This document shows, piece by piece, positions 41,788 to 60,741 of a stretch of DNA of 64,000 bases (its first letter is position 1; each line of letters starts with the position of its first letter). The stretch is taken from NCBI GenBank assembly GCA_965248755.1, contig OZ252149.1:2400001-2464000 (forward strand). Reading direction: 5' to 3'. A model generated the notes under the pieces. That model was not told the origin of the DNA and did not search any database. It saw only the letters and a list, made by a program, of their open reading frames with translations. The position numbers and the translations under genes were made by a program. This DNA comes from Candidatus Latescibacterota bacterium. Lineage in GTDB: Bacteria; Latescibacterota; CBDEFO01.

Positions 41788-41820
41788 CGTACATACGGAA
41801 TAATCTGCCAATCTGTCGGA
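41788..41820 (-). promoter_or_regulatory. Putative element-sigma promoter (leftward)
   Basis: TCCGACA-N11-TATTCCGTATGTACG; matches 42608-42640. Confidence 0.65.
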
Positions 41821-42021: not shown

Positions 42022-42603
42022 ATGTGGCAGAATTACGGAGGATTTTTCCAAGATTGGGAGATTGCAGTTGCCAAGAATCTGATCAACGAATTTCGTGAGC
42101 AGTGGACCTGCCTGGAGCGGGAAGGTTTTGATGATCTGTTTCAGGAATGTCTTACTCACTGGTATTTTGCCAAGGATGACTACGACCCCGCACGTAAGGC
42201 GTCTCAAAAAACGTTTATGGGGAAAGTCATCCGAAACAAGCTCAAGGACCTTGTCGATGAAAGAGAAGCAGATAAGAGAAAGATAGCCCATCTCACCGTT
42301 TCTCTTGATGAGCTTTTAGGAGATGATGAGGACTCTACCCCCTTAATTGACAAGATTGATGCGAGCATCATCACCGATGCCTCTCCCAATCCTTTTTTGA
42401 GAATCGAGTTAAAGTTAGACCTCTCAAAAGCCCTCCAGAAGCTCACCCCGCAACAAAAGACACTCTACCATTTATGCGAGAAGGGGTTTAACATCACAGA
42501 GGCAAGCGAATATCTCAAGACACCTCGAAGTACCCTCTATGATGAGATCGAACGCATAAGGACAATCTTTATGAAAGAGGGTCTTGAAGACTACCTGAAA
42601 TAA
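42022..42603 (+). CDS. Sigma-70 family (ECF-like) sigma factor of the element
   Basis: DDLFQE, YDPARKASQKTFM..VIRNKL, SLDE; region 4 LTPQQK...EASEYLKTPRSTLY. Confidence 0.85.
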   Translation: MWQNYGGFFQDWEIAVAKNLINEFREQWTCLEREGFDDLFQECLTHWYFAKDDYDPARKASQKTFMGKVIRNKLKDLVDEREADKRKIAHLTVSLDELLGDDEDSTPLIDKIDASIITDASPNPFLRIELKLDLSKALQKLTPQQKTLYHLCEKGFNITEASEYLKTPRSTLYDEIERIRTIFMKEGLEDYLK

Positions 42604-42607
42604 TCCT

Positions 42608-42640
42608 TCCGACACTTTCCCGAAATATTCCGTATATACG
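42608..42640 (+). promoter_or_regulatory. Putative element-sigma promoter (rightward)
   Basis: TCCGACA-N11-TATTCCGTATATACG. Confidence 0.65.
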
Positions 42641-42678
42641 TGATAGAAGCAGTCTTAACTCGAACAGGAGGACAAGAA

Positions 42679-43008
42679 ATGAAGGTCGTATGCAGGTTCA
42701 AATTTCATGAAGGATTAGAAAGGGAAATGATTGAGACCCAGCTTGCTCTTGCCATCGTTGCGGCTGAGTGTACTTTTGGTCAGCCTAAGGTAAGGATCAG
42801 TGCCGGCTACTGTGTCTCAAAAGAAAAGCCTCAGGTTGCTATTGATGTTTCTACCGAAGTGGGGGAGCACATCGCCCAGGTCTTTACCGGCTTGATGATC
42901 CGACAGCTTGGTGAGGATAATTTCACTGTGGATAGGATAGAAACAGATGCCCCCCTGAGGCCTGTTACTTCCCCCAACAAGCTGGAAGGGATTACCGGAA
43001 ATGAATAG
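42679..43008 (+). CDS. Hypothetical protein
   Basis: AGGAGG RBS; overlaps the primase start. Confidence 0.7.
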   Translation: MKVVCRFKFHEGLEREMIETQLALAIVAAECTFGQPKVRISAGYCVSKEKPQVAIDVSTEVGEHIAQVFTGLMIRQLGEDNFTVDRIETDAPLRPVTSPNKLEGITGNE

Positions 43009-45433
43009 AAGGTCATTCTTTGAGATACTGTATGGCGATGATATTGAGGGAAGAGGTATCGAGCTAAGAGCTATCGGTACAGGTCCTGTGAAGCGGAAAT
43101 TCTGTAAAGGCATAGAGGAGGCCATCAGCTATCGATGCCCAGAAGGTTATGATCTGTACGTTGGAATTGCACTGAGGCGCGGGCAGAAGGGAGATAAGAA
43201 CGATATCTCCTCTGTTCCAGCGTTCTGGTGCGACCTAGATGCAAAAGACTTTAATGGAGATACAAATAAGATTCTGGAAAGAATCAATAACTTTGAGTTC
43301 CAGCCCACAATGCTGGTGAATTCAGGAGGAGGGATCCACGCCTATTGGGTGTTCAAAGAAGCATTTGAGATCGAAAGCCTTGAAGACATATTTTACATCG
43401 AGGGACATCTCAAAGGCATCCAGGAAACCCTCGGGGGAGATGAAGGAACATGGGACCTACCGCGGATATTGCGTGTCCCAGACACATATAACCACAAATA
43501 TAGCCCTCGGCGTGAAGTGAAAGTTGTACATCTCGAACCTTCCCTCCGATATAACCCGGGCGATTTCGATGACTACCACGTGGACCCTCCGGCTGAAAGC
43601 AGCTTCTCAGATCGACCCATCCCTCAGGATTTAGCGCTGACAGCTACGGACAAAGTCCTGATTCAGTCGTTATCCAAAGAGTTGCAGGAGATCTTTAAGA
43701 CTGGAGGCCTGCCTGATGACAATACAGGAGAGATAGATCGTTCAAGGGGCCTGTGGAGGATCGGACGGGAGTTGAAACGCCAGGACGTGAGCTGGGACCA
43801 GTTCTACAGGATAATGCATAACAGCGACAAACTGGGTAAGGCAGAAGGACGAGAAGAGAAATACTACAGGCAGATTTGGGACAAGAATTCAGAGACCTCT
43901 CTTGGCGTAAAGAGCGAAGTCACTTCCATTCTTAGGCGCAAGGGGATGAAGGTCTTTATGAAGAGAAGGCTCATTTCAGAGATTGTCATCAAGGATCTGA
44001 AGACGAGGGGATACTTTGTTTGCACAGACAGGGACCTCTACTACTTCTCTGATCAAGACAAGAAACTGTTGCCTATCGAGGATCAGTACTTTGCCGCTGC
44101 GATTGAAGACTTCTACGGAATCAATATTTCAGAGATGGAGTTCAAATATCTAATGGGTTCTATCCAAACAGAGACACTGCAAAGAGGGACTAAGGCAGAT
44201 ATATATCGCTTCGCCTTCTACGACAAAGAGACTAAGGAACTCTACATCTCCCGGTTCGACGGTCAGGCGTACAGGTTGGATGGCGAAAAAATAGACCTTA
44301 TCTCCAATGGTGAGGACGGCGTCCTATTCTTGGACGAACCTTATTGCCATCCTTTCGAATACATGCCTGATAGATCCAAGGAGAGGCTCTTCACCAAGCT
44401 GTTCGTCAACCCTGTAAATTTTTCCACTGGGGGAGATGTTACCTTGTCCAAAAACGAGCAAAGGCTCTTATGGGGGGTCTGGATATACTCGCTGTTCTTT
44501 GAATCACTATTGCCGACAAAGCCGATTGTCTCGTTCCTTGGGGAAAAGGGGAGTGGGAAGAGCTCGACACTGCGCTGGGTTATTCAGCTCCTTTTTGGAC
44601 CTGAAGCTGATGTATTATCGCTGGCGAAAGAAAAAGAAGATGCTTTTCTGTCCGCCGTGACGAACAACCATATATGCATATTTGATAACTGTGATGGCCG
44701 TATAAATTGGCTGAACGATCACCTTTCCGCGTTGGCGACAGGAGGGCACATAACACTCAGGAAGCTCTATACCACAAATGAGTCAGTTAGCTATAAGCCT
44801 AAAGTGTTTTTGGGGTTGACTGCCCGGACGCCGCAGTTCAAGCGTGACGATGTAGTAGACCGGCTATTGATTTTTAAAGTAGACCGGATAGAGCCCTTCA
44901 TATCTGAGAACACACTACGAGAAGAGAGACTTTCGCAAAGGAACCTGATCTGGTCAGAACTCCTTGAAAATTTGAACGTAATAGTAGCAACGTTAAAGGA
45001 GGATAACGAAGAAAAGTTTACTACGAATCACAGGATGGCAGACTTCGCAGAATTGGGCTATCGAATAGCATCTGGCCAGGGATTTGGTGAAGACTTCAAG
45101 AACGCTCTGAAGAAGACGCAAGAAGAACAGGATATCTTTCTGTTGGAGGATGAGCCCATATATTTAGCCTTGGAAATCTGGATTCAGGATAAAGGGAACC
45201 GAGGGGATGAATTAACCGCTGCTGAGCTTAGGGCAAAACTAGAAACAGTCGCTAGTGATAATAGTATTATATGGCCCTATGAGACCACTACTCCACAATC
45301 CTCAAAAAAACCGATAAGCTTTGCAAAGAAACTTAATAATATATGGAGTAACTTACAGGCGTTTTTTGATTGCAATAAAAAAGAGGTGGGAGGTAGAAAG
45401 AAACTCTACTCGTTTAACCTAAAAAGTAGATGA
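43001..45433 (+). CDS. RepB-type primase fused to a P-loop helicase/ATPase
   Basis: FWCDLD, PTMLVNSGGGIHAYW, RILRVPDTYNHK; Walker A GEKGSGKS; IFDN; RKLYT. Confidence 0.85.
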   Translation: MNRRSFFEILYGDDIEGRGIELRAIGTGPVKRKFCKGIEEAISYRCPEGYDLYVGIALRRGQKGDKNDISSVPAFWCDLDAKDFNGDTNKILERINNFEFQPTMLVNSGGGIHAYWVFKEAFEIESLEDIFYIEGHLKGIQETLGGDEGTWDLPRILRVPDTYNHKYSPRREVKVVHLEPSLRYNPGDFDDYHVDPPAESSFSDRPIPQDLALTATDKVLIQSLSKELQEIFKTGGLPDDNTGEIDRSRGLWRIGRELKRQDVSWDQFYRIMHNSDKLGKAEGREEKYYRQIWDKNSETSLGVKSEVTSILRRKGMKVFMKRRLISEIVIKDLKTRGYFVCTDRDLYYFSDQDKKLLPIEDQYFAAAIEDFYGINISEMEFKYLMGSIQTETLQRGTKADIYRFAFYDKETKELYISRFDGQAYRLDGEKIDLISNGEDGVLFLDEPYCHPFEYMPDRSKERLFTKLFVNPVNFSTGGDVTLSKNEQRLLWGVWIYSLFFESLLPTKPIVSFLGEKGSGKSSTLRWVIQLLFGPEADVLSLAKEKEDAFLSAVTNNHICIFDNCDGRINWLNDHLSALATGGHITLRKLYTTNESVSYKPKVFLGLTARTPQFKRDDVVDRLLIFKVDRIEPFISENTLREERLSQRNLIWSELLENLNVIVATLKEDNEEKFTTNHRMADFAELGYRIASGQGFGEDFKNALKKTQEEQDIFLLEDEPIYLALEIWIQDKGNRGDELTAAELRAKLETVASDNSIIWPYETTTPQSSKKPISFAKKLNNIWSNLQAFFDCNKKEVGGRKKLYSFNLKSR

Positions 45434-45436
45434 TCT

Positions 45437-45705
45437 ATCTTCACCATCTTCACCCATCTTCACTGCTATCTTCACCACATCAAGTTACACTTTTACAATA
45501 TCTTATAGATGTTAGTGAAGATAGTGAAGGTAACTTTCCAAGAGTATTAATAAAAATATATTTATAAAAAAGAGGGGAATATATAAAGAATACGCATCTA
45601 TTATTCACTACCTTCACTTGCTTAACGTAAGTTTATGTTTCGGAACATGTTAGTGAGGTGAAGGTAGCTAAAAACGTATCTTCACCTATCTTCACCATCT
45701 TCACC
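45437..45705. repeat. Iteron-like repeat cluster (putative replication origin)
   Basis: About 11 copies of A(T/C)CTTCAC in both orientations around an AT-rich core. Confidence 0.75.
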
Positions 45706-46045
45706 GCTTTTCTGGGAGGTTGAATCTCACTTTGGGAAGTTCTGCGCTGACTTAATCGAATCTGATTAGGTAGCTACAGATTCTTTATAGCCCTTAAATG
45801 CTATATATAGCAAATAAACTTCAGGAGTATATAGGTATATCGGTTGTGAATCACCTAGGCGATATTCACCAGTGAAAGAACTCTATATGAAAGAGACACA
45901 AGGCTCTACGTGTACGAAAGACTTGCTCCGAAGGTTGATAAACATCTCGCAAAAGCCCTAAACGACAAATCTCGTCACCTTGCTGGAGAAAAGATACAAT
46001 TAGGAAAGAGCGCAGGACAAGTCTGTCTCTGATGCTTTTGCTGAA

Positions 46046-46315
46046 ATGTTTAATAAGGCTATAGACGATCTCAAAGAGCATTATATGAAGGGCATTGATG
46101 ACTATATCGAAAGGTATCACAGGAGCCTTTATGAGGAAACCAACCAGTCGTTGAAGAGGCTCGATGAAGTTTGGGTAGCAGGTCTCAAAGGAGATGCAAC
46201 GTCTGAAGATTTCAGAGAGGTCCTGAAAGAGTGGTATTTACTAAATATCAAAGAGATTGAGATCTACAAAAAGGAGGTTCCCGATGACCATATCGAAGAA
46301 GCAGTTGGAGGCTAA
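46046..46315 (+). CDS. Hypothetical protein
   Basis: Plausible helical ORF in the element operon. Confidence 0.5.
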   Translation: MFNKAIDDLKEHYMKGIDDYIERYHRSLYEETNQSLKRLDEVWVAGLKGDATSEDFREVLKEWYLLNIKEIEIYKKEVPDDHIEEAVGG

Positions 46316-47201
46316 CAGGAAGAACGCACAGAAGGGTGGAGTAAAGACCCCAGAAGGTAAGGAAGTAGTCAAACACAACGCCCTCAAACATGGATTACTC
46401 GCAAAAGAGGTAGTCATTACAGTAGGAGAGGATGCAGAGTGCCTAGAAGAGTTTAACGCTCTGTTAGGAGACTTAAAGACACAGCTTATTCCGGAGGGGA
46501 CTTTAGAGGAGATGTTAGTAGAAAAGATAGCAGTTTCCTACTGGAGGCTCAGGAGGGCGTATAAATATGAGGTAGGGCTTATCAGGCAAAACTTGGATAC
46601 CACTACAAATGACTACTATAACCAGACGGACTGGCAGGACAGGAAGATAAATAAGACGGAGGAAGAGATAGAACAGGAGATAGAACAAAAAATAGGAAGG
46701 ATCAAATATTGGAAAAAGGACAAGAGAGACTTACAGAGAATGCACAAAGAAGGCAAACCTTTAGAGGAGATTTACGACTGGGAGGAGAATTGGAAAGGGT
46801 TCTACGATGAGGTACACGATCTCATCGAAGAGGAAGGTTTAGAATTTGAAGATTTAGAGCCCGAGCAGTTGATAGAATTCCTGACTGATAAGGTTGGTTG
46901 GAATGATGATCTTATTTGGAAGGCCCTTGTAGAGCTTTGCGATGAAAAAGTAGAATACCATAAAAGGCAGATTAAGGATTTAGAGAAGGAGAAAGAAAAG
47001 AACAGGCTTAAAATTGAGGTGTTAAAAAGACTGGGAAACATTCCTTCAAAGGAGGAGTTAGAACGGCTCTTAAGGTATGAGGGCTCGCTAGAGAGGCAGT
47101 TTTATAAGGCATTAAATCAGTTAGAAAGAATACAAAGATTACGCTTGGGGGACAAGATATCTGCCCCTGTGGAGGTGGATTTGAACGTAAATACGGAGTA
47201 A
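46284..47201 (+). CDS. Hypothetical mobile-element protein
   Basis: AAGGAGG RBS; N-terminal SKKQLEANRKNAQKGGVKTPEGK...NALKHGL; C-terminal LLRYE..LERQFYKAL. Confidence 0.75.
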   Translation: MTISKKQLEANRKNAQKGGVKTPEGKEVVKHNALKHGLLAKEVVITVGEDAECLEEFNALLGDLKTQLIPEGTLEEMLVEKIAVSYWRLRRAYKYEVGLIRQNLDTTTNDYYNQTDWQDRKINKTEEEIEQEIEQKIGRIKYWKKDKRDLQRMHKEGKPLEEIYDWEENWKGFYDEVHDLIEEEGLEFEDLEPEQLIEFLTDKVGWNDDLIWKALVELCDEKVEYHKRQIKDLEKEKEKNRLKIEVLKRLGNIPSKEELERLLRYEGSLERQFYKALNQLERIQRLRLGDKISAPVEVDLNVNTE

Positions 47202-48075: not shown

Positions 48076-48527
48076 CCGTACTTTCAGTAGGCATCTCGTT
48101 AGATAAAGGAGTCAAGAAGAGTAGAGGCTGAGCCCTTGACTGATCTTATATTGCCTTCCAGAAATTCATTGACATCCACTGTCAGATTTTGTACTTCTCT
48201 CCTGATTGCTCTACCCATTGTATCATTCTTCTGATTGATCAACACTCACGAATACGCAGTCCGAGCTTTTCACGATAGATTCTATCCTTCCACTCTATCT
48301 GCGCCTTGACACGGCTTTGAGGACGATGAAGGAGATCTTTCCCAGTCTCACGATTCTTGCCATCTATAAAAAGGTAGTTCAACTGTACAAAGACGTTGTG
48401 AATGGGGTAAATGGATTTACTATGTTTGTAATTTCACCTAAATCATCACAGGCGCGGATTTGTAATCCTACTTTAAGGTGGGTTCAAGACAAATAGGTAG
48501 GTTGTCCCCAATTCAAATGAGGTAGAT

Positions 48528-48923
48528 ATGTTCAGATTGAGCAAGGGACAGATGGAGGATGAGATAAGCAAGGCTATTATTAAATTTCAAAAAGAACACA
48601 TGGGCAGCGGTCCCAAAGAATCAAAGACATATATTATAGAAGATATGATTTTACTCCGGCTTAAAGGGACTTTGACGCCTGCTGAACAAAAATTGGGTGA
48701 GAGTCCAAAAGGATCGGGATTGATAAAAGAGATCAAGATGCAGCTTATGGAGTCCTCCCGGCCGCTTTTGGAGGATATAATTTGTAACCTTACTGGATGT
48801 AAAGTCACCAGCATTCATACTGACATCAGCACGAGGACAGGCGAGAGGGTCATACTTTTCATTCTGGACAAGCGCCTTGAGGAAATTTTCCCTCAAGGGG
48901 GCACTTCGTCAAAAAAGTCTTGA
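48528..48923 (+). CDS. DUF2294 (MpsC-like) protein
   Basis: SKGQMEDEIS...EHMGSGP...LTPAE...SIHTDISTRTGERV. Confidence 0.88.
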   Translation: MFRLSKGQMEDEISKAIIKFQKEHMGSGPKESKTYIIEDMILLRLKGTLTPAEQKLGESPKGSGLIKEIKMQLMESSRPLLEDIICNLTGCKVTSIHTDISTRTGERVILFILDKRLEEIFPQGGTSSKKS

Positions 48924-48948
48924 CATATTAATTTAAATACGGTATATT
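48920..48948 (+). promoter_or_regulatory. Sigma-70 promoter
   Basis: TTGACA-N17-TATATT. Confidence 0.75.
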
Positions 48949-49298
48949 ATTGGCAGTTTTAATTCGGCGGATTAGTCAAATAGCACTCTTGAAAAAGATG
49001 GCTTGTTGAAAAGTATGCCGACGCAGATTACGGTAGGTGAGTAGTCAGGCGTCGGCATTTTCTTTTGATGCGAGTTTGAAGGTCTATGGAAAAGGTGAAT
49101 GGAAAGTTTGTCAATATCCATATATTATTGGCAGTTTTAATTCGGCAGATTAGTTAAATAGCACTCTTGAAAAAGATGGCTTGTTGAAAAGTATGCCGAC
49201 GCAGATTACGGTAGGTGAGTAGTCAGGCGTCGGCATTTTCTTTTGATGCGAGTTTGAAGGTCTATGGAAAAGGTGAATGGAAAGTTTGTCAATATCCA
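48943..49298 (+). promoter_or_regulatory. Tandemly duplicated 178-bp attenuator/riboswitch-like leader
   Basis: Two near-identical units, each with terminator ATGCCGACGC...GCGTCGGCAT-TTTCTTTT and an upstream TCGGC able to pair with the 5' arm. Confidence 0.65.
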
Positions 49299-49935
49299 TA
49301 TTACTTATCTAGGAAGACCGAACAATATGATAGAACCAGAGATTTGCAACGAGCATTCCGTCCCGGACTCGGAACTCCTATCCAGAGTTATAGACGGAGA
49401 CTTAGCCGCTTTTGATGTGGTCGTAGATCGGTATAAGGGGAGGCTCTTAAACTTTGTCTTTCGGTTCATCGGAGACAAAGAAGTGGCCGAAGACATAGTC
49501 CAGGAGACCTTCTTAAGGGCCTATAGAAAACGGACACATTACGAAGCCATAGCCAATTTCTCCACGTGGCTTTTTACCATCGCGGGTAATTTAGCCAAGA
49601 CCGAATTAAGACGGCGCAAAAGGTGGAGATTACTGTCTTTAGACTGGAACGATGAGACACAGACGGGCTTCGATATAGCTGACGAGTCTTACCGCCCCGA
49701 CAGGGTGACCGAATCCGAGCTCATTCAGCGGAGCATACAGAGGGCAATCGATTCCCTGCCTCTGAAGTACAAACAGGTAGTCATCCTGCACGACATTGAC
49801 GGAATGCCTTATCAGAACATAGCCAAGATCGTAGGCTGCCCTGTAGGAACCGTAAAGTCCAGGGTAAATAGAGGAAGACTTAGACTTCAGAAGAAACTCA
49901 AAGCAGAGGGTAAGGACATAGGGATAGACTTCTAG
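49264..49935 (+). CDS. ECF sigma factor (RpoE/SigW-like; true start possibly ~49327)
   Basis: AEDIVQETFLRAY, FSTWLFTIA, VGCPVGTVKSRVNRGR. Confidence 0.92.
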   Translation: MEKVNGKFVNIHITYLGRPNNMIEPEICNEHSVPDSELLSRVIDGDLAAFDVVVDRYKGRLLNFVFRFIGDKEVAEDIVQETFLRAYRKRTHYEAIANFSTWLFTIAGNLAKTELRRRKRWRLLSLDWNDETQTGFDIADESYRPDRVTESELIQRSIQRAIDSLPLKYKQVVILHDIDGMPYQNIAKIVGCPVGTVKSRVNRGRLRLQKKLKAEGKDIGIDF

Positions 49936-50070
49936 CGCGCAAAAAGGAGGGATATATGGGAAAATGAACTGCAGGATCTTTGAGAAGGAGGCTCTGAAAG
50001 CAGGTCTTAAGTATTATCTGACTCTATGAATTACCCTGCTTAAATAGGTGATGAGATTCCATCTATCTTT

Positions 50071-50096
50071 AAAGAGCCCAGTATATGGGTCTTTTT
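50071..50096 (+). terminator. Intrinsic terminator-like hairpin (second copy at ~52413)
   Basis: AAAGAGCCCA-GTATA-TGGGTCTTTTT. Confidence 0.55.
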
Positions 50097-50155
50097 GCGT
50101 CGGCTTTTTGTTTTTGTGCTATACAAACAAATCTTTTGGAGGAGGTGATAAGATA

Positions 50156-50419
50156 GTGTCTGTTAGAGCTTATGTGCTGATAGATGTGGCGGGCGACAGT
50201 GTGGAAGATGTCGTGGAGGAGCTCTCCGACATAGAAGGGATAAAATTTGTCGGCCCTGCAGAAGGACGGTTACGGGATCTTACTACCCTAATGGAATCTT
50301 TCGATATTATGGCTCATATTCAGGCAGATGACAGCAATGGCTTGGGAGAAGCGATTACATCCCAGGTGAGGAGCATTGCCGGTGTGACAAAGACGATAAC
50401 GTGCATAGCAGTTGAATAA
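50156..50419 (+). CDS. Stand-alone Lrp/AsnC ligand-binding domain protein
   Basis: GGAGG RBS and GTG; VRAYVLI...FDIMA...VRSIAGVTKTITC. Confidence 0.82.
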   Translation: MSVRAYVLIDVAGDSVEDVVEELSDIEGIKFVGPAEGRLRDLTTLMESFDIMAHIQADDSNGLGEAITSQVRSIAGVTKTITCIAVE

Positions 50420-50466
50420 GAAGCAGTCATAGAGTATTCATCTATTGTTAGAGAAAGGGACAAACC

Positions 50467-50829
50467 GTGAACGCTGATCTTAAAGATGCTATTTGTGAGG
50501 AGATCACTAAATTTCAGGAATTACAGATGGGAATAGTCCCCAGGAAAGCAACTGTCCTGATAGAGGAGGATATGATCGTCGTCCATCTCAAAGAGATGCT
50601 CTCTCCTGCTGAAAAACATCTGGCCTTAAGCCAGAAGGGCCAAAATCTCCTAAGGGAGTTTAATGCGCTTCTTTTTGAGGGTCCCCGCCAATATCTGGAA
50701 GATGTGATCGTGGAGACTATGGGGCGCAAGGTTGTTGACGTTCAAACAGCGATTAGTTCCTTAACAGGCAGTATCGTCGCTCTTTTTATGTTAGGAGAGC
50801 CGGCGGAGATAGAAGTTTCCTGTGAGTAG
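50467..50829 (+). CDS. DUF2294 (MpsC-like) protein
   Basis: Paralog of 48528: ITKFQ..MG..P, LSPAE, DVQTAIS..TG. Confidence 0.82.
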   Translation: MNADLKDAICEEITKFQELQMGIVPRKATVLIEEDMIVVHLKEMLSPAEKHLALSQKGQNLLREFNALLFEGPRQYLEDVIVETMGRKVVDVQTAISSLTGSIVALFMLGEPAEIEVSCE

Positions 50830-50963
50830 ATCAGGAAGTTTCCACGGAACGTACCGAAATCTCCTTTGATGATCGGAATAATGCGGCCATTACGGAAGAC
50901 ACTTAAGAGAAACTATTAGAGTGCTAAAACCCAGTATAGCGTAAGTAACCAGGGGGTGACAAT

Positions 50964-51659
50964 ATGCTGCACGAGACTCTATCAGATAGCTATTTAGATG
51001 AAGTCTTCGGGGATATATATCCGAAGGTGGAGACTTTGAAGGACGGTACTGAAGTTACGATAAAGTTATTGGAGAGCTGGGATAAGGAGGAACTTATGGA
51101 ATTCTTCCTCCAGATTCCGGCAAGGGACAGGATGTTACTGATGGACGATGTGACGGATGAGTCTGTCATTGACGGATGGTGCGCTAATGTAGATCTAAGT
51201 AGAGTTATCCCTTTAGTAGTAAAGCTTGAGAGGGAGATTATAGGGAAAGCTTCACTGCATCATCACAGGATGGGCTGGAGGAGGCACACGGGACAGGTTC
51301 GGACTGTAGTGCATCCTGACTACAGACGCCGAGGTGTAGCACGTCTGCTCTTGGGCGAGTTGACGGAAATAGCCATGCACACCGGCTTGGAAAGATTAAC
51401 CGCTGAGTGTATGGCGGAACAACATGGGGCCATTCAGATGTTCCTGGATATAGGCTTTACACAGGTGGCGATACTCCCCGACCAAGTTGTAGACTTGAAG
51501 GAGCATTCTCACGATCTGCTGATATTTGTAAACGATCTTAGGGAGGGACAGGTGGCGATACTCCCCGACCAAGTTGTAGACTTGAAGGAGCATTCTCACG
51601 ATCTGCTGATATTTGTAAACGATCTTAGGGAGGGAAGGGAATATCCCGAATTAGGTTAA
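50964..51659 (+). CDS. GNAT acetyltransferase with an 87-bp internal tandem duplication
   Basis: TLKDG.EV.I, VHPDYRRRGVA; 29-aa repeat at 51461-51634. Confidence 0.88.
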   Translation: MLHETLSDSYLDEVFGDIYPKVETLKDGTEVTIKLLESWDKEELMEFFLQIPARDRMLLMDDVTDESVIDGWCANVDLSRVIPLVVKLEREIIGKASLHHHRMGWRRHTGQVRTVVHPDYRRRGVARLLLGELTEIAMHTGLERLTAECMAEQHGAIQMFLDIGFTQVAILPDQVVDLKEHSHDLLIFVNDLREGQVAILPDQVVDLKEHSHDLLIFVNDLREGREYPELG

Positions 51660-51837
51660 AGTTGCAAATCTGTTCTTTGTATTATAAAGGAATGTCCATG
51701 TCTTGATGATGTGTTTAGTTTTGTAGGAAGTTTAATAAGGGAGTATACTGTTGTGTATCCGCCTTTCTGAAACCCACGCTGCCAATTACGTAAAGTCATC
51801 TTTTGTAGACGCTTGGCATCATCGAAAGGAGAAAGAA

Positions 51838-52371
51838 ATGGTGAGACAGACACTACCTAATGGCTCACAGTCCATCTCTGACTTACTCAAGGACAGAGAG
51901 TTCGTCGACAAATTCTTCCACATAACAAGGGGATACACAAGGACTGATGATGAAGCAAGAGAGGTAACGCAAAAGGTTATCTGCTATGCGCTTCAGAAAA
52001 ACCTGGAAGAAATCCAGAATCTTGAAGCTTACCTTATAACAGCGTGTGTAAACAGAGCAAAGGACCTTAACCGTAACGATGGCAGATTTTGCGAACTGGA
52101 TGATAATATCGCTGACGATGAGGAGAGCCGCCCAGATCGGTTGCTTGAAAAAGATGAGCTGAAGTCGTTAGTTCAAGAGATTCTTCTGTCCCGTCTGAAA
52201 CCGAAAGAGGCAGAAGTCTTAACGCTACGATGTCGTGAACTTTCTTACCGAGAGATAGCTGAGGAGATGAAGGTGCCTGAAGGCACTGTAGCAACGTGGA
52301 TAGCCAGGGCTACGAAGAAATTTGAGAAGGAGGCTCTGAAAGCAGGTCTTAAGTATTATCTGACTCTATGA
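51838..52371 (+). CDS. ECF-type sigma factor
   Basis: AREVTQ, AYLITACVNRAKD, LSYREIAEEMKVPEGTVATWIARA. Confidence 0.85.
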   Translation: MVRQTLPNGSQSISDLLKDREFVDKFFHITRGYTRTDDEAREVTQKVICYALQKNLEEIQNLEAYLITACVNRAKDLNRNDGRFCELDDNIADDEESRPDRLLEKDELKSLVQEILLSRLKPKEAEVLTLRCRELSYREIAEEMKVPEGTVATWIARATKKFEKEALKAGLKYYLTL

Positions 52372-52497
52372 ATTACCCTGCTTAAATAGGTGATGAGATT
52401 CCATCTATCTTTAAAGAGCCCAGTATATGGGTCTTTTTGCGTTGGCTTTTTGTTTTTGTGCTATACAAACAGATCTTTTGGAGGAGGTGATAAGATA

Positions 52498-52761
52498 GTG
52501 TCTGTTAGAGCTTATGTGCTGATAGATGTGGCGGGCGACAGTGTGGAAGATGTCGTGGAGGAGCTCTCCGACATAGAAGGGATAAAATTTGTCGGCCCTA
52601 CAGAAGGACAGTTACGGGATCTTACTACCCTAATGGAATCTTTCGATATTATGGCTCATATTCAGGCAGATGACAGCAATGGCTTGGGAGAAGCGATTAC
52701 ATCCCAGGTGAGGAGCATTGCCGGTGTGACAAAGACGATAACGTGCATAGCAGTTGAATAA
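52498..52761 (+). CDS. Lrp/AsnC ligand-binding domain protein (copy 2)
   Basis: Near-identical to 50156-50419. Confidence 0.82.
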   Translation: MSVRAYVLIDVAGDSVEDVVEELSDIEGIKFVGPTEGQLRDLTTLMESFDIMAHIQADDSNGLGEAITSQVRSIAGVTKTITCIAVE

Positions 52762-52808
52762 GAAGCAGTCATAGAATATTCATCTATTGTTAGAGAAAGG
52801 GACAAACC

Positions 52809-53171
52809 GTGAACGCGGATCTTAAAGATACTATTTGTGAGGAGATCACTAAATTTCAGGAATTACAGATGGGAATAGTCCCCAGGAAAGCAACTGTCAT
52901 GATAGAGGAGGATATGATCGTCGTCCATCTCAAAGAGATGCTCTCTCCTGCTGAAAACCATCTGGCCTTAAGCCAGAAGGGCCAATATCTCCTAATGGAG
53001 TTTAATGTGCTTCTTTTTGAGGGTCCCCGCCAATATCTGGAAGATGTGATCGTAGAGACTATGGGGCGCAAGGTTGTTGATGTTCAAACAGCGATTAGTC
53101 CCTTGACAGGCAGTATCGTCGCTCTTTTTATGTTAGGAGAGCCGGCGGAGATAGAAGTTTCCTGTGAGTAG
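52809..53171 (+). CDS. DUF2294 (MpsC-like) protein (copy of 50467)
   Basis: Near-identical to 50467-50829. Confidence 0.82.
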   Translation: MNADLKDTICEEITKFQELQMGIVPRKATVMIEEDMIVVHLKEMLSPAENHLALSQKGQYLLMEFNVLLFEGPRQYLEDVIVETMGRKVVDVQTAISPLTGSIVALFMLGEPAEIEVSCE

Positions 53172-53234
53172 ATCAGGAAGTTTCCACGGAACGTACCAAA
53201 ATCTCCTTTGATGATCGGGAAAGGAGGAAATACT

Positions 53235-53948
53235 ATGTGCGTAATTACCGTGTCCAGACAGCTTGGCAGTGAGGGCGATCTGATTGCTTGCCAGGTTGCC
53301 AAGTTGCTGGGATATGAATACATGAATAAAGAGTTACTAAGGTTGGTAGCTGTCCAGGCGGATGTGTCAGAATTTGAAGTTTCCCAGTACGATGAGAAGG
53401 GGGAGCACCCATTAGTACACTTCCTAAACAGGACAGTTATCCCCGGGGCATCGCGCCTCCCCAGGACCGCCGCCTACTACTATCTGGATTGGTATCCACA
53501 TGAGATGTCCTATGTATGGATGCTTAGCGACGAGGATCTGGAAGAGTTCCGCTCTCTGGATCGAGACGAATATTTGAGACTCATGCGTTCAGTTATACAT
53601 AGGCTGGCGGACAAGGGAGATGTGGTGATCCTCGGACGAGGTGGACAGGTGATTCTGGCGGATCGGAAAGATGCACTGCATATCAGAACTGTGGCTCCTT
53701 TGGAAAACCGCATAAGGAGAGTTATGGAAAGGATGGAGATAGAGTACGATTCGGCGGCCAAGTTGACTAAAAAGACAGATAGAGACAGATCCCGCTACAT
53801 CAAGAATTACTATTACGCTGACTGGGACGATCCGGAACTCTATCATCTGATTTTGGATACAGGAAAGATGGAGATTGATATGGCTGTCCACCTGGTAGTC
53901 CAGGCTGCGGAGGATTTGTCGGCAAAGATGGTTCTAAAAGCAACCTGA
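53235..53948 (+). CDS. Cytidylate kinase-like family protein
   Basis: VITVSRQLGSEG, VVILGRGG, DRDR..Y...YY..W.DP..YHL.LDT. Confidence 0.88.
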   Translation: MCVITVSRQLGSEGDLIACQVAKLLGYEYMNKELLRLVAVQADVSEFEVSQYDEKGEHPLVHFLNRTVIPGASRLPRTAAYYYLDWYPHEMSYVWMLSDEDLEEFRSLDRDEYLRLMRSVIHRLADKGDVVILGRGGQVILADRKDALHIRTVAPLENRIRRVMERMEIEYDSAAKLTKKTDRDRSRYIKNYYYADWDDPELYHLILDTGKMEIDMAVHLVVQAAEDLSAKMVLKAT

Positions 53949-54094
53949 CTCGAGTTAAACGGGGGACCGTTCGCTCTGCAATCATTTAGATCAAGACTGT
54001 TGTTGTGCTGAGGAGTCAAAACATCAGGTTATAGAAGATTCGAAAGTGCATTCTATTCCTGTTCCTTGCACTCAGCACCGAACCCCAGGATCAG

Positions 54095-54190
54095 TCCCCG
54101 ATTGATCCTTTCGGGGATTAACTCGAAGGGAGTGATTAAGGGTGAAGACAATATTACTGGTGGATGACGACCTGAACCGGAGGCTCCGTA
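54095..54190 (+). pseudogene. Truncated duplicate of the response-regulator 5' end at 56997-57090
   Basis: Shared palindrome plus AACTCGAAGGGAGTGATTAAGGGTGAAGAC..; reads VKTILLVDDDL then stops. Confidence 0.75.
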
Positions 54191-54633
54191 AACGCAGTGA
54201 ACATATATTCGCTGAAGCCAAGCAACAGCACGGTATGGGATGAGCCTGTTACAGAGGACTAGCCTCACTGAATGAACAGTTAAATCTTGTTGCAACGGTA
54301 CAGAATCTCAAGAAGCTTCTATCCTTCATAAGAAGGAGAAAAGCGTCTATATGTGCCCTGTCTGTCAGAGACAGTGCATCCTGTTCTTCAAACAGCTCCT
54401 ATTCCTTGCTGACCAGAACTCTGATGAGACTATTTTGCTTATTGCATAGCAAAACGATACGATATGCTACTGTTTGACCCATAATTGGCCTCTCAGACGC
54501 TGTCTGCAAGATAACTATTTCACACAGCTTTTAGTACTATAAACTATACAGGCAAACGATGGATGCCTTTCAATATCAAATTCTCAAGAAACTACTTCCG
54601 TGAATAACTACACTTTTTGGAGAAGACCCAAAC

Positions 54634-56634
54634 ATGGAAATACAGTTACTTAAAGACATCATAATTATATTTGGAATATCTATTGTTGTCATCTTTACAT
54701 GTGATCGAATTCGAGTGCCGGCAATGGTGGGATTTCTCCTGACTGGCATCTTGGCAGGGCCTCACGGACTGGGATTGATAAGATCGGTTCATGAAGTCGA
54801 CGTTTTAGCCGAACTTGGGGTTGTGTTGTTGCTCTTTACAATCGGCATCCAGTTCTCACTTAAAAGTCTGTTGGAAATTAAGAAATCGGTCCTCTTGGGC
54901 GGCTCGCTTCAGGTGTTGCTGACCCTTTTGGCTGTTTTTGTCATAGCAAGGCAAATCGGTCAGTCCTTCGGCGAATCGGTCTTTATGGGATTCCTTGTCT
55001 CCCTCAGCAGCACCGCCATTGTGCTCAAACTCATCCAGGAAAGGGCTGAAGTCGATAGCCCCTACGGACAAACAGCCCTTGCCATCTTGATCTTTCAGGA
55101 TATCATTATCGCTCCGATGATGTTGTTTACGCCTCTGCTGTCCGGAGCGACAGGTAATTTAGGCGGATCGGTTCTCGTTCTTATCGCCAAAGGAATCGGT
55201 ATCATAGTCTTAGTGATCGTTAGTGCTGAATGGATTGTGCCGAAGGTGTTGTATCAAATCGTCCGGACCAGAAGCCGGGAACTTTTCCTGTTTAGCATCT
55301 TTTTGATATGTTTTGCAGTTGTGTGGCTCACCTATAAGTTAGGACTTTCCCTTGGCTTGGGTGCGTTTTTGGCGGGCTTGATCGTTGCCGAATCTGAATA
55401 CAGTTATCAGGCTCTCAGTAATGTTTTACCCTTCCGAGATATCTTTACGAGCTTCTTTTTCGTCTCCATTGGTATGCTGTTGGATGTAGACTTTCTCTTC
55501 AAACAGCCGGAGTTCATCGCTCTTATTGCTTTAGGCGTTTTGGTATTAAAAACTATCATCGTTGGCTCTGTAGTTGTTTTATTGGGATTTCCGCTCCGCA
55601 CCGCGATTTTGGTTGGCTTTGCACTCGGTCAGTTCGGAGAATTTTCCTTCATCTTGTCCAAGGTCGGTGTTGAATATGGCTTACTTGCTGGGGATATTTA
55701 CCAGCTTTTTCTGGCTGTCTCTGTGATGACTATGGCGGCGACACCATTCATTATAGAGCTTGCGCCTCGAACAGCGGACATTATCTTGCGGCTACCACTG
55801 GCGAGAAGGTTAAAATCGGGCTTGTATTCCGAGGGAGTGATAGCACCGCTTCCCTCTGCTCACCCAAAAGGCCATCTTATCATCATCGGCTTTGGAGTGA
55901 ACGGTAGAAATTTGTCACGAGCCGCCAAGGTAGCAGGAATTCCCTATGTGATCATTGACATGAACCCCGATACGGTTAGGACCGAACGAGCAAAGGGTGA
56001 GCTGATCTATTACGGTGATGCAACTCAGGAGATGGTACTTCTGCACGCAGACATCAAAGACGCAAGGGTTGTGGCTGTGGCGATCTCCGACTCGGCCGCA
56101 ACCCGCAGAATTACCGAAATCTCCCGGAGAATTAACCCTGCGGTTCATATCATTGTGAGGACGCGCTATCTCAAAGAGATGAAGCCTCTATACGATTTGG
56201 GAGCGGACGAAGTCATCCCGGAGGAGTTTGAGACATCAGTGGAAATCTTTGCTCGAGTTTTGGCGAAATACCTTATACCCAGAGATGAAATTGAGAGACT
56301 CGTCGCTGAGGTGCGATTAGATGGTTACAAGATGTTTCGAAGCCTTTCTAGAGGATCGGCCTCTTTTTCCGATTTGAAACTTCGGCTCCCCGATATCGAA
56401 ATCAGTGCGTTCCAGATCGGTGAAAGATCGCCCTTAGTTGAAAAATCTTTGGCTCAGATTAAGCTTAGAAAGAAACATGAAGTTACCGTATTGGCAATAC
56501 GTCGAGACTCACAGATACTGTTCAGCCCGGACGGAGATGCGCAACTCTGTGCTAACGATGTTCTTTTTGTCCTTGGACCCCCAGATAAGATCTCCGGTGT
56601 CACGAGTCTCTTCCGAAATCCAGAAGAAGGATGA
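54634..56634 (+). CDS. CPA2 cation:proton antiporter (KefB/C-like) with TrkA-N and TrkA-C domains
   Basis: SSTAIVLK, ILIFQD, FFVSIG, GEFSF, IIGFGVNG, YGDAT. Confidence 0.93.
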   Translation: MEIQLLKDIIIIFGISIVVIFTCDRIRVPAMVGFLLTGILAGPHGLGLIRSVHEVDVLAELGVVLLLFTIGIQFSLKSLLEIKKSVLLGGSLQVLLTLLAVFVIARQIGQSFGESVFMGFLVSLSSTAIVLKLIQERAEVDSPYGQTALAILIFQDIIIAPMMLFTPLLSGATGNLGGSVLVLIAKGIGIIVLVIVSAEWIVPKVLYQIVRTRSRELFLFSIFLICFAVVWLTYKLGLSLGLGAFLAGLIVAESEYSYQALSNVLPFRDIFTSFFFVSIGMLLDVDFLFKQPEFIALIALGVLVLKTIIVGSVVVLLGFPLRTAILVGFALGQFGEFSFILSKVGVEYGLLAGDIYQLFLAVSVMTMAATPFIIELAPRTADIILRLPLARRLKSGLYSEGVIAPLPSAHPKGHLIIIGFGVNGRNLSRAAKVAGIPYVIIDMNPDTVRTERAKGELIYYGDATQEMVLLHADIKDARVVAVAISDSAATRRITEISRRINPAVHIIVRTRYLKEMKPLYDLGADEVIPEEFETSVEIFARVLAKYLIPRDEIERLVAEVRLDGYKMFRSLSRGSASFSDLKLRLPDIEISAFQIGERSPLVEKSLAQIKLRKKHEVTVLAIRRDSQILFSPDGDAQLCANDVLFVLGPPDKISGVTSLFRNPEEG

Positions 56635-56720
56635 GGCGTACACTGACACCTTTTACAGGATTCTCAAGAAGTGAGCAAGTACTATTCTTAGTTGAAATTG
56701 ATCAGGCTCCTGTCATAAGC

Positions 56721-56990
56721 TTATGCTGACAACGCTTCTTGAGAGTGATTCAATTCTCTCTGAATGGCTTGTCGTAGCAAGGGTAAATAGCGTGCTCCCT
56801 TCATCTTTTGCAATCGAGATTCAATATCCAGCAAAGCACTAGCTAACCAATCCCCGATAGAATCAATCGGGCACAGGCGCTGATGTGAATTCTTCCATAC
56901 TTTAACGTTTCTTGTCAGTTGAGCAACCTGACTGTTTATAGATTCGAGGCAGTTGGTGGTTCGGAAACTGCTGTTGAGATAGGGAAACAG
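56721..56990 (-). pseudogene. IS256-family transposase C-terminal remnant
   Basis: SFRTTNCLESINS...RNVK.W...WLASALLDIE.RL. Confidence 0.75.
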
Positions 56991-57043
56991 ACCTGATCCC
57001 CGATTGATTCTTTCGGGGATCAACTCGAAGGGAGTGATTAAGG

Positions 57044-57400
57044 GTGAAGACCATATTGCTCGTGGATGACGACTTGAAACAGAGACTCCTCTACGAGCAG
57101 GGGCTCAGAGACGATGGCTACAACGTGATTCTGGCATCAGACGGAGAGGAAGCCCTCGATAAGGTTCAGGAAAGTCGGCCTGATCTTGTAGTCCTGGACA
57201 TATCGATGCCCGGAATGGACGGGCTAGAAGTACTGGAGAGGATACTCGAAAGGGACAACAAGATGCCGGTAATACTGAACACGTCCGATGCCAGCTACAA
57301 GGATAATTTTATGAGCTGGTCGGCCGACGCCTACGTCGTCAAATCCTCAGACCTGACCGAACTTAAGGAAGAGATCAAGAAATCGCTTGCAAAGGCGTAG
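57044..57400 (+). CDS. Single-domain response regulator
   Basis: ILLVDDD, PDLVVLDISMPGMDG, ADAYVVKS. Confidence 0.9.
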   Translation: MKTILLVDDDLKQRLLYEQGLRDDGYNVILASDGEEALDKVQESRPDLVVLDISMPGMDGLEVLERILERDNKMPVILNTSDASYKDNFMSWSADAYVVKSSDLTELKEEIKKSLAKA

Positions 57401-57663
57401 GTAGAAGAACATAAAAGAGTATCTATTAGAGCTGGATGCTCTCACGGAGAGAAGTGTGACAACCTTGACTATCCACTTCCCCGCAATTTACTCTGAATTG
57501 TAGGGTCAGCTTGAAAGATACCCTAACATGCTTCTAAACTTTCAAGCTGTGTAAATCTTAAATTTTGCTGGATCGGGAAAATTCGGCCATTACGGAAGAC
57601 ACTTAAGAGAAACTATTAGAGTGCTAAAACCCAGTATAGCGTAAGTAACCAGGGGGTGACAAT

Positions 57664-58359
57664 ATGCTGCACGAGACTCTATCAGATAGCTATTTAGATG
57701 AAGTCTTCGGGGATATATATCCGAAGGTGGAGACTTTGAAGGACGGTACTGAAGTTACGATAAAGTTATTGGAGAGCTGGGATAAGGAGGAACTTATGGA
57801 ATTCTTCCTCCAGATTCCGGCAAGGGACAGGATGTTACTGATGGACGATGTGACGGATGAGTCTGTCATTGACGGATGGTGCGCTAATGTAGATCTAAGT
57901 AGAGTTATCCCTTTAGTAGTAAAGCTTGAGAGGGAGATTATAGGGAAAGCTTCACTGCATCATCACAGGATGGGCTGGAGGAGGCACACGGGACAGGTTC
58001 GGACTGTAGTGCATCCTGACTACAGACGCCGAGGTGTAGCACGTCTGCTCTTGGGCGAGTTGACGGAAATAGCCATGCACACCGGCTTGGAAAGATTAAC
58101 CGCTGAGTGTATGGCGGAACAACATGGGGCCATTCAGATGTTCCTGGATATAGGCTTTACACAGGTGGCGATACTCCCCGACCAAGTTGTAGACTTGAAG
58201 GAGCATTCTCACGATCTGCTGATATTTGTAAACGATCTTAGGGAGGGACAGGTGGCGATACTCCCCGACCAAGTTGTAGACTTGAAGGAGCATTCTCACG
58301 ATCTGCTGATATTTGTAAACGATCTTAGGGAGGGAAGGGAATATCCCGAATTAGGTTAA
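57664..58359 (+). CDS. GNAT acetyltransferase (identical copy of 50964)
   Basis: Identical protein. Confidence 0.88.
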   Translation: MLHETLSDSYLDEVFGDIYPKVETLKDGTEVTIKLLESWDKEELMEFFLQIPARDRMLLMDDVTDESVIDGWCANVDLSRVIPLVVKLEREIIGKASLHHHRMGWRRHTGQVRTVVHPDYRRRGVARLLLGELTEIAMHTGLERLTAECMAEQHGAIQMFLDIGFTQVAILPDQVVDLKEHSHDLLIFVNDLREGQVAILPDQVVDLKEHSHDLLIFVNDLREGREYPELG

Positions 58360-58537
58360 AGTTGCAAATCTGTTCTTTGTATTATAAAGGAATGTCCATG
58401 TCTTGATGATGTGTTTAGTTTTGTAGGAAGTTTAATAAGGGAGTATACTGTTGTGTATCCGCCTTTCTGAAACCCACGCTGCCAATTACGTAAAGTCATC
58501 TTTTGTAGACGCTTGGCATCATCGAAAGGAGAAAGAA

Positions 58538-59065
58538 ATGGTGAGACAGACACTACCTAATGGCTCACAGTCCATCTCTGACTTACTCAAGGACAGAGAG
58601 TTCGTCGACAAATTCTTCCACATAACAAGGGGATACACAAGGACTGATGATGAAGCAAGAGAGGTAACGCAAAAGGTTATCTGCTATGCGCTTCAGAAAA
58701 ACCTGGAAGAAATCCAGAATCTTGAAGCTTACCTTATAACAGCGTGTGTAAACAGAGCAAAGGACCTTAACCGTAACGATGGCAGATTTTGCGAACTGGA
58801 TGATAATATCGCTGACGATGAGGAGAGCCGCCCAGATCGGTTGCTTGAAAAAGATGAGCTGAAGTCGTTAGTTCAAGAGATTCTTCTGTCCCGTCTGAAA
58901 CCGAAAGAGGCAGAAGTCTTAACGCTACGATGTCGTGAACTTTCTTACCGAGAGATAGCTGAGGAGATGAAGGTGCCTGAAGGCACTGTAGCAACGTGGA
59001 TAGCCAGGGCTACGAAGAAATTTGAGAAGGAGGCTCTGAAAGCAGGTCTTAAGTATTATCTGTAA
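58538..59065 (+). CDS. ECF-type sigma factor (copy of 51838, 2 aa shorter)
   Basis: Identical until the duplication ends at 59062. Confidence 0.85.
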   Translation: MVRQTLPNGSQSISDLLKDREFVDKFFHITRGYTRTDDEAREVTQKVICYALQKNLEEIQNLEAYLITACVNRAKDLNRNDGRFCELDDNIADDEESRPDRLLEKDELKSLVQEILLSRLKPKEAEVLTLRCRELSYREIAEEMKVPEGTVATWIARATKKFEKEALKAGLKYYL

Positions 59066-59219
59066 CTCAACTAATATCCAAGACTTAGTACGGGGGTATT
59101 TATTTTCTGAATTTTTCTGAAAGAATTTAACGGTTTAATGTGACTATCTAAGTGAAGGCCCAATATATCAGGTAACAGCGTTGATGGTAATGACGCTTGA
59201 GGAAGTAGAGGTCTTCTCG

Positions 59220-60314
59220 TTGGACATTCCTGGTTCATAATCCGGAGGTAAGTAGTATGTCCAGTCCACCTGTTTACTGATGTGTCGTATTGTGAGTTTC
59301 GAAGACGACGATACGACACCTGATCAACTCAAGGTATTCTTCATCCTACGTTTAGGATTAGATTAGAAATCAGCTTGTAGGACTTGTAGGGTAGGATACC
59401 AGAATCGATGTCACCCAGGGTTATTCAGCAAGCAGTCCTGAACTTGAAGTAGCGCTACACTTGCCGCAGTGCTGAACTTGTTGGATCGCAACATCTGGGA
59501 AGACTGAATAACCCTGGGTAGTATGTCTTACAGATTAGGTGAACTGCTTTCATAATCTGGAGGTAAGCAGTATGTCCAGTCCACGTGTTTACTGATGTGT
59601 CGTATTGTGAGTTTCGAAGACGACGATACGACACCTGATCAACTCAAGGTATTCTTCACCCTACGTTTAGGATTAGATTAGAAATCAGCCTGTAGGGCTT
59701 GTAGTAGGGTAGGATACCAGAATCAATGTCATCCAGCGGTTATTCAACAACCAGTGCTGAACTTGAAGCAGTGCTACACTTGACGCGGTGATGAACTTGA
59801 GGCAGTGCTGAACTTGAAGCAGTGCTGAACTTGAAGCAGTGCTACACTTGCCGCGGTGCTGAACTTGAGGCAGTGCTGAACTTGTTGGATCGCAACATCT
59901 GAGAAGACTGAATAACCCTGGGTAGTATGTCTTACAGATTAGGTGAACTGCTTTCATAATCTGGAGGTAAGCAGTATGTCCAGTCCACGTGTTTACTGAT
60001 GTGTCGTATTGTGAGTTTCGAAGACGACGATACGACACCTGATCAACTCAAGGTATTCTTCACCCTACGTTTAGGATTAGATTAGAAATCAGCCTGTAGG
60101 GCTTGTAGTAGGGTAGGATACCAGAATCAATGTCATCCAGTGGTTATTCAACAACCAGTGCTGAACTTGAAGCAGTGCTACACTTGACGCGGTGATGAAC
60201 TTGAGGCAGTGCTGAACTTGTTGGATCGCAACATCTGAGAAGACTGAATAACCCTGGGTAGTATGTCTTACAGATTAGGTGAACTGGTAAACGGGTGTGA
60301 ACGGGAATGTCCGG
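59220..60314 (+). ncRNA. Candidate large structured ncRNA made of three tandem units
   Basis: Units 59234-59548, 59549-59952 and 59953-60286; many internal stems; 59220-59238 pairs with 60297-60314; no credible ORF; followed by a terminator. Confidence 0.55.
59751..59886. repeat. 17-bp tandem repeat, 8 copies (3 copies at 59432-59482, 4 at 60155-60222)
   Basis: Consensus GCAGTGCTGAACTTGAA. Confidence 0.93.
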
Positions 60315-60320
60315 TATAAT

Positions 60321-60354
60321 GAGCCCCCTGCGAAACGTAGGGGGCTCTTATTTT
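60321..60354 (+). terminator. Intrinsic terminator
   Basis: GAGCCCCCTGCG-AAA-CGTAGGGGGCTC-TTATTTT. Confidence 0.85.
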
Positions 60355-60741
60355 GGATGCGATCAATAACACAAAGAATAACCTTACGAAGAAATACTAC
60401 TACGCTGTGAACAGTGTGAGGGGAAATTAAAAACAGGTCCAGCAGAAGATCAGGTTAAACCTTCTTTAACAAAAGCTCACAGAGTATTGAATACAAAGCC
60501 TGTCAGACATCAATGACGGGCTTTCCTTTTTGGGCATTTACAAGAGTGCTCACTTTAACCAAAGTGAGTAGTTTGCACTGGTTTTGAACCGAGAAAGTTT
60601 TATTGACATCCACTATTTTCTTTGTTATCTTCTTTAGAAAGTTTGTACAGTCTGTAGATAATCCCCACAAACCTTATGATAATTATGACTTAACAGCATA
60701 ATATTTTTGATATTACAGGTTTTCTCTTAATATTTCAGTGG

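Follow-up and report, generated by a model that had tools for sequence, protein, structure and literature searches.

A candidate structured RNA gene with nested tandem amplification downstream of an orphan ECF sigma factor gene in a Latescibacterota-labelled genome

The locus and its surroundings

The DNA analyzed here (the window) is a stretch of 64,000 nt, positions 2400001-2464000 of contig C1 of genome G000, which is assembled as a single contig of 4.54 Mb. On the plus strand of the window a GNAT acetyltransferase gene (57664..58359) is followed by a gene for a divergent ECF sigma factor of 175 aa (58538..59065; PF08281, TIGR02937) and then by an array of three tandem units. A preliminary description, made from the sequence alone, had placed this array directly downstream of an ECF sigma gene, and this was upheld by a TIGR02937 score of 57.1 bits against a cut-off of 42.9. 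The copy in the window is termed locus A, and two further loci, B in the same genome and C in the relative G001, are described below.

The three units were recovered by repeat search with starts at 59234, 59549 and 59953, giving unit 1 (59234..59548, 315 bp), unit 2 (59549..59952, 404 bp) and a third unit of 334 bp which ends at 60286 (59953..60286), all on the plus strand. The first 156 nt of the units are 96% alike, and unit 3 is 98% identical to unit 2 except in repeat number; the copy number of these two near-identical units is given as assembled. Within every unit of locus A we found a tandem array of a 17-nt repeat, a further layer which was absent from the preliminary description. TRF gave 3 copies in unit 1 (59430..59480), where the array sits within the 16-bp stem domain, 8 copies in unit 2 (59749..59884) and 4 copies in unit 3 (60153..60220), again on the plus strand.

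All arms of the nested stems described for the units were found in place. The 16-bp arm pair (59413-59428/59504-59519) is perfect in unit 1 only, and two of the described stems cannot both form fully because bases 59317-59319 are common to both. A 12-bp long-range stem, P3, has its 5' arm at 59267..59278 and its partner at 60286-60297, and this 5' arm is intact in unit 1 only. The pairing of the two flanks (59220-59238 with 60297-60314) was seen by inspection as 18 pairs with one bulge, and it closes the predicted fold of the whole of locus A with a pair probability of 1.0. The 5' arms of the closing stems lie at 59222..59237 (P1, 59222-59230; P2, 59233-59237) and the 3' arms of P3, P2 and P1 at 60286..60312.

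The terminator noted after the locus was confirmed as an intrinsic terminator (60321..60355, plus strand) with a stem of 12 pairs at 60321-60347 and a T-run, and an identical stem is present in 3/3 loci. At its other end the element starts at 59171 or earlier, upstream of the start first given, with a 5' leader (59171..59218, plus strand) of two hairpins (59177-59197 and 59199-59218); in loci B and C the duplications of whole monomers have their left edge at the position corresponding to 59171. The 5-mer ATGTC occurs four times per monomer at helix junctions (2/5000 shuffles, the motif having been picked post hoc) and is a possible protein-binding motif.

The statement that the locus had no credible open reading frame held for long frames, the longest stop-free runs on the plus strand of the three loci being 27-60 codons, but a frame of 7 codons in each unit had been overlooked. 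At the start of unit 1 (59244..59280, plus strand) a Shine-Dalgarno-like GGAGG is followed after 8 nt by an ATG which opens the frame MSSPPVY, and the same minigene, reading MSSPRVY, stands at the starts of units 2 and 3 (59559-59595 and 59963-59999). The locus might on this account be a structured mRNA or another ribosome-engaging RNA in which the minigene is functional, as a micropeptide, in translation-coupled refolding or as a ribosome sponge. GGAGG-N8-ATG is present in 8/8 full units with a stop after 7 codons in 7/8, it stands where a gene start would be expected, some 100 nt downstream of the putative promoter, and the first unit of locus A differs from those of loci B and C by two synonymous changes. 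However, such a site arose in 194/5000 shuffles, and the genome contains 170 such minigenes among 768 GGAGG-N7-9-ATG sites. Non-synonymous changes were observed in codons 3, 5 and 6 and the peptide is poorly conserved, one unit is without the stop and one deletion monomer without the site, and the conserved Pro codons also serve as a stem arm. We consider a functional minigene unlikely.

The array had also been described as lying in mobile cargo. This was borne out only in part: the window copy is found downstream of a serine-recombinase element in a rearranged stretch of lower GC content, but locus B is syntenic between G000 and G001. The block at 40046-47201 resembles an integrated element. 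It contains the gene of a large serine recombinase, CcrB/XisF-like at scores below cut-offs, together with a sigma-like gene at 42022-42603; an 810-aa gene in the block gave no NCBIfam match and looks primase/helicase-like by eye. Genes of locus B (mpsC-like, AsnC-domain, GNAT and sigma) recur in rearranged copies that make the stretch at 48412-59065 a mosaic, and a segment of 1492 bp is duplicated at 99.8% (50871-52362 and 57571-59062). Both window GNAT copies carry an exact 87-bp in-frame tandem duplication (51461-51635 and 58161-58335) which is not in the locus B copy. A third sigma copy in the window (51838-52371) has lost the RNA, and the anti-sigma-like ORF of a second ECF gene (49264-49935) is truncated, with a fusion to ~45 bp from the end of the RNA-linked sigma.

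Other repeats were recorded in the window. A dispersed repeat of about 357 bp (54177-54533), which by eye resembles the 3' end of the IS1182 of G001, has several copies in G000 and >30 in G001. At 34660-40139 three copies of a ~1.26-kb IS interrupt a helicase-like gene, and dozens of identical copies are found in the genome. In the neighbourhood of locus B (L022 11978-15436) the GNAT gene has a radical SAM gene of the KamA family close by, with TIGR00238 over its cut-off and the AblA model below it, an arrangement which may recall the ablAB acetyl-beta-lysine osmolyte pair.

Further loci and amplification at three scales

Locus B is located on the minus strand at about C1:2309860-2311170, behind a sigma paralogue which is 93% identical, and locus C was found in G001, a same-genus relative of G000 which is 96% complete. 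With two loci in G000, both behind sigma, one in G001 and no dispersed copies in unrelated contexts, an IS or MITE was rejected. Locus A consists of one head, three units and one tail, locus B reads head-unit-unit-tail and then two shortened monomers, and locus C reads head-unit-unit-tail and then one whole monomer. This intact monomer of about 395 nt comprises the leader hairpins, the closing stem, one unit, the 3' arms and the terminator, and its presence bears out the ancestral multi-stem RNA of ~400 nt that had been proposed. Amplification of a core, likewise proposed, was matched by related duplications in locus B and G001, and since independent arrangements recur in these loci we regard the amplification as biological.

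Amplification was observed at three nested scales, affecting 17-nt repeats, internal units and whole monomers. In 10/10 units the length of the 17-nt array is exactly divisible by 17, with 1-8 copies per unit (3, 8 and 4 in locus A; 6, 2, 3 and 2 in locus B; 6, 1 and 2 in locus C). The arm bearing the array is the sole internal arm retained in 10/10 units, including two deletion monomers without the other arms, and the deletions in the third and fourth units of locus B take out whole arms. A 5-nt microhomology common to the start and the end of the unit is found at the unit junction. Since tandem repeats abound in G000 (470 TRF rows, 27 of them with a period of 12-49 and at least 4 copies), the amplification may be neutral, with selection unnecessary. 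One of these 27 arrays, an unrelated 17-nt tandem array of ~20 copies, lies just downstream of the tmRNA region (C1:3067147-3067484).

Tandem copies could also arise via rolling-circle reverse transcription, if the element were a reverse-transcriptase template or a retrozyme-like circular RNA. Its ends pair, and the tail-to-head joint (60317 to 59171) was present in an RNA-Seq metatranscriptome (run X10). The same joint, however, was found in run X7, whose library type is unrecorded, and at the DNA level in the G000 and G001 genomes, the unit junction falls at the 5-nt microhomology, and Rfam gave no match to a ribozyme family. The two reverse transcriptase matches in the genome, at C1:3.68 and 3.73 Mb, are >1.2 Mb away from the RNA loci at 2.31 and 2.46 Mb, and a retron or DRT RNA was rejected on this ground. 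The template option raised in the preliminary description thus found no support, and we judge this origin to be extremely improbable. At C1:3731484-3733370 a reverse transcriptase ORF of 266 aa abuts an IS beside a 301-aa gene and looks retron-like by eye.

No homologue was found outside the genus by BLASTN (2/61 related genomes matched, both within the genus), with covariance model R1 (2/151 phylum genomes) or with covariance model R2 (2/151 phylum genomes and 2/39 genomes), and none in plasmids and phages by blastn or tblastn. In viral contigs four patterns gave 0 loci and a fifth gave 6 loci which matched in the SD/ATG motif only, while one pattern in GTDB contigs gave 5 loci, of which one was the G001 locus and four were unsupported beyond the pattern. 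The genomes searched are a sample, many of them incomplete, and exact patterns miss diverged copies. This narrow range of matches limits how far structure and function can be proved.

Folding, transcription and the adjacent sigma factor

The intact G001 monomer was predicted to fold into a multi-arm structure at -140.6 kcal/mol, compared with -113.0 +/- 5.2 for 100 shuffles (z -5.3; 0/100). As the reverse strand of the monomer was likewise below its own shuffles (z -4.9), the z-score alone leaves the strand unfixed; the plus strand is favoured by its base composition (G 309, C 229) and by the terminator. Across the 8 full units 95% of stem cells were paired. Covariation among these closely similar units was not significant, with 77 to 307 of 500 shuffles reaching the observed values; one double-change pair in alignment A2 was not above shuffles and another lay in P1 across rows. 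In P1 one U-A to C-G double change was observed between monomer types, a C-G to U-A change in P6a kept the pairing, the tetraloop occurred in only two GNRA forms (GAGA and GGGA), and one locus B monomer joins mismatched P1 arms.

Transversions were found in 3/125 paired and 18/155 unpaired columns when P3 was scored as unpaired (p 0.005), but in 7/137 paired and 14/143 unpaired columns when P3 was scored as paired (p 0.17 per site), so that the signal faded, and the helices for this test were drawn from the same sequences as were tested. The RNA was no more conserved than its neighbours, either between loci A and B (94-95% against 93-97%) or between locus B and G001 (93.5% against 95.7-97.4%).

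Of 15 sequencing runs listed, four (X7, X10, X13 and X14) were compared by their contigs. All five X10 contigs (5/5) fell within 59171-60317 at a depth of 7-12, with none on sigma or beyond the terminator, and the one loose end of 13 nt was itself element sequence. The contigs of X7 ran into both flanks of the element, X14 covered parts of both sigma and the RNA, and X13 covered sigma only; gaps in the coverage of X10, X13 and X14 should not be read as absence. The confinement of the X10 contigs to the element is a hint rather than proof that the RNA is transcribed, given that contigs reveal neither strand nor ends nor level, that the comparison lacks a silent control stretch and that the X10 strain may lack sigma.

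These observations also bear on whether the locus is a decaying or silent relic, either a dead RNA gene or the remnant of a mobile element, in which inverted repeats promote slippage and amplification is purely neutral. A relic would suit the restriction to one genus within what was searched, the lack of excess conservation, the deletion of whole arms in two units of locus B and a genome full of IS copies and tandem repeats. It is harder to reconcile with RNA-run contigs which keep within the element, with stems paired at 95% across 8 units, with a terminator intact in 3/3 loci and with a distribution over so few loci, which is not MITE-like dispersal. We find a relic doubtful, and consider it highly probable that the locus is a real RNA gene.

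The sigma factor is isolated in sequence, as among 1.84 billion representatives only its own cluster fell below 1e-30 and the next matches were 37-38% identical. Close relatives were found in 1/168 phylum genomes (G000 only), and a viral scan for loci of sigma relatives gave none. A metagenome scan for the context of the nearest outside sigma proteins (P0002-P0004) returned 20 distant ECF loci, 15 of which were also searched with covariance model R1, and none had an RNA match. The sigma paralogues differ at 10 synonymous and 12 non-synonymous codons, which is consistent with mild purifying selection. No anti-sigma gene was found in the region downstream of the 175-aa sigma gene; by eye, anti-sigma-like ORFs follow other G000 ECF genes (e.g., C1:2722241 and C1:4498248) and are also found behind many of the distant ECF loci fetched.

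The AT-rich spacer between sigma and the RNA contains a putative RpoE-like promoter (59123..59151, plus strand) made up of GAATTT, an 18-nt spacer and TCTAA. The -10 element of RpoE promoters has the form TCTRA. The -35 consensus is given as GAACTT with a 16/17-bp spacer (PMC4336711), compared with the spacer of 18 here, and the specificity of this sigma itself may differ. The motif was obtained in 18/5000 shuffles of the spacer, the pattern having been picked after viewing the sequence, and a 13-nt stretch over the putative -10 has exact matches in G000 only at the two RNA loci.

In G001 an IS1182 connects two TTAA sites, one within the mpsC-like gene further upstream and the other within the promoter, a junction which removes the GNAT gene, sigma and the -35, and 0 matches to sigma were found in this 96% complete genome. 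The end of IS1182 together with a 1-nt insertion forms a sigma-70-like site (TTCACA, 16 nt, TATCCT; 9/12) which may keep the RNA expressed; the region contains 5 sigma-70-like matches against 2.8 expected. That G001 has lost sigma and kept the RNA argues that the RNA can persist without this sigma. For G000 we lean towards an RNA which is driven by the sigma.

A closer connection would exist if the RNA were an anti-sigma or promoter decoy. Transcribed by the sigma, it would bind its own ECF sigma or the holoenzyme through tandem -35-like motifs, the GAACTT-bearing 17-nt repeats, and titrate it, a negative feedback which replaces a protein anti-sigma and is tuned by the number of repeats. The hexamer GAACTT, identical to the RpoE -35 consensus of PMC4336711, occurs 11, 10 and 8 times in the three loci, and in the last 17-mer it stands 14 nt ahead of TCTG(A/G); GAACTT with TCTRA 12-19 nt further on arose in 12/5000 monomer shuffles. 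The lack of an anti-sigma gene behind this sigma, unlike other G000 ECF genes, and the absence of a 6S RNA from G000 by Rfam would agree with such a role. A single GAACTT, however, arose in 646/5000 shuffles and its multiplicity stems from slippage, a spacer of 14 nt is involved and three units read TCTGG or TCAGA, and these patterns too were picked after viewing the sequence. The RNA is also kept in G001 without sigma, and we regard an anti-sigma or decoy role as very unlikely.

Candidate function and comparison with known RNAs

The reading which we prefer, at a probability of roughly 0.4, is that of a non-coding RNA from a new family, which is driven by the sigma, binds protein and has its dose set by the repeat arm. 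Its gene, a stand-alone one with a monomer of ~400 nt, would be transcribed on the plus strand, starting at a promoter located after the stop codon of sigma and before 59171 and ending at the terminator. The adjacent orphan ECF sigma would most likely read that promoter, making up a two-part module of a sigma and its own RNA output. The RNA would fold into an end-closed multi-arm structure and, in what is a tentative assignment, would most likely bind protein, acting as a sponge or scaffold with multiple sites, and the dose would be carried by the arm with the 17-nt repeats. Increases in copy number would come from slippage or unequal recombination of the ordinary kind where short microhomologies occur, with an end-closed fold left after every duplication. 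The anatomy, the folding potential, the three loci, the nested change in copy number and the loss of sigma in G001 are observed; the identity of the promoter, the dependence on sigma, the protein-binding mode and a benefit of amplification are all matters which we infer. The element probably represents a structured RNA family that is new, though its kind is broadly known, and the nested amplification is unusual.

A conventional sigma-dependent sRNA which acts by base pairing (GsrN or F6 type), and which might be processed into shorter active forms, was also considered, as sRNAs under the control of a stress sigma are established (PMC5869019, PMC8557902). The size and dense folding of the present RNA argue against this, and no Hfq (PF17209) was found in G000. 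BLASTN, a test of matches longer than short seeds, gave no strong match elsewhere in the genome beyond the two loci (best E 0.008, for unit 1), and the 14-nt repeat core had 2 outside sites at one mismatch. Such an sRNA is in our view quite unlikely.

If the RNA is real, it would be an uncatalogued multi-arm RNA family of ~400 nt in an uncultured Latescibacterota-labelled lineage, and its natural copy-number variants at three nested scales would mark out RNA modules. With sigma, promoter and RNA in <2 kb, a set that can be reconstructed in a laboratory strain, it would also offer a compact test case for the control of orphan ECF sigmas, which was named as open in a review (PMC8103513). If the RNA binds sigma, this would be a regulatory mode for which no description was found in the literature searched.

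The element had been described as matching no known RNA class, and the window indeed gave 0 Rfam 15 matches at the gathering threshold; at E up to 10 there were 5 sub-threshold matches, the best with 26.3 bits against a cut-off of 70. No description of the element was found in the literature covered, which excluded subscription journals and the supplements of large RNA-motif surveys. A tmRNA or RNase P RNA (ARAGORN, RF00010) was rejected, as both genes are located elsewhere in G000 and neither in the window, and no tRNA was found in the window. Resemblances to the hairpin ribozyme, group I and box C/D RNAs, judged by eye against their consensus, had the wrong order or missing parts, in agreement with Rfam. 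Nine nt of the P1 3' arm recur upstream of sigma, a copy which was dropped as locus B differs there. A 6S RNA was likewise rejected, with no RF00013 match in the element or in the G000 genome by Rfam and a predicted fold that is multi-arm and not a rod of ~190 nt with a central bubble.

CsrB and RsmZ are protein sponges of 300-400 nt which work by repeated short hairpin motifs. The present element is similar in being an RNA of 300-400 nt with repeats in a host that encodes CsrA; it differs in its GGA content, and csrA in G000 is directly behind fliW in a flagellar cluster or operon. A CsrB/RsmZ-type sponge was rejected, as GGA is not enriched (8 in 395 nt) and does not occur in the consensus 17-mer. 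Retron msr-msd RNAs and the template RNAs of DRT systems have ends which pair to form a closing stem. A closing stem of paired ends is shared by the present element, but none of the three loci contains a reverse transcriptase.

The small RNAs GsrN of Caulobacter, driven by sigma-T (PMC5869019), and F6/SfdS, driven by SigF (PMC8557902), resemble the element in being RNA genes under an alternative stress sigma, as is proposed here. They differ in that the element is about 400 nt to 1.3 kb, multi-arm and internally amplified, in a host where no Hfq was found, and that no pairing with a target was found for it. The RNAs 6S, Ms1 and CoRP bind core or primary-sigma holoenzyme, and CoRP, of 516 nt, has close homologues in one genus only (PMC11077062). 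With these, as presented in that source, the element shares a structured, end-closed and stand-alone form, and with CoRP also its size and narrow range, whereas it is found behind an ECF gene, contains tandem modules and has no RF00013 match. The large multi-stem bacterial RNAs OLE, ROOL, GOLLD and the raiA motif, whose function is described as unclear (PMC12286853), are on the account given there a loose analogy in size and stems, and from these the element is set apart by its tandem internal amplification and the lack of an Rfam match.
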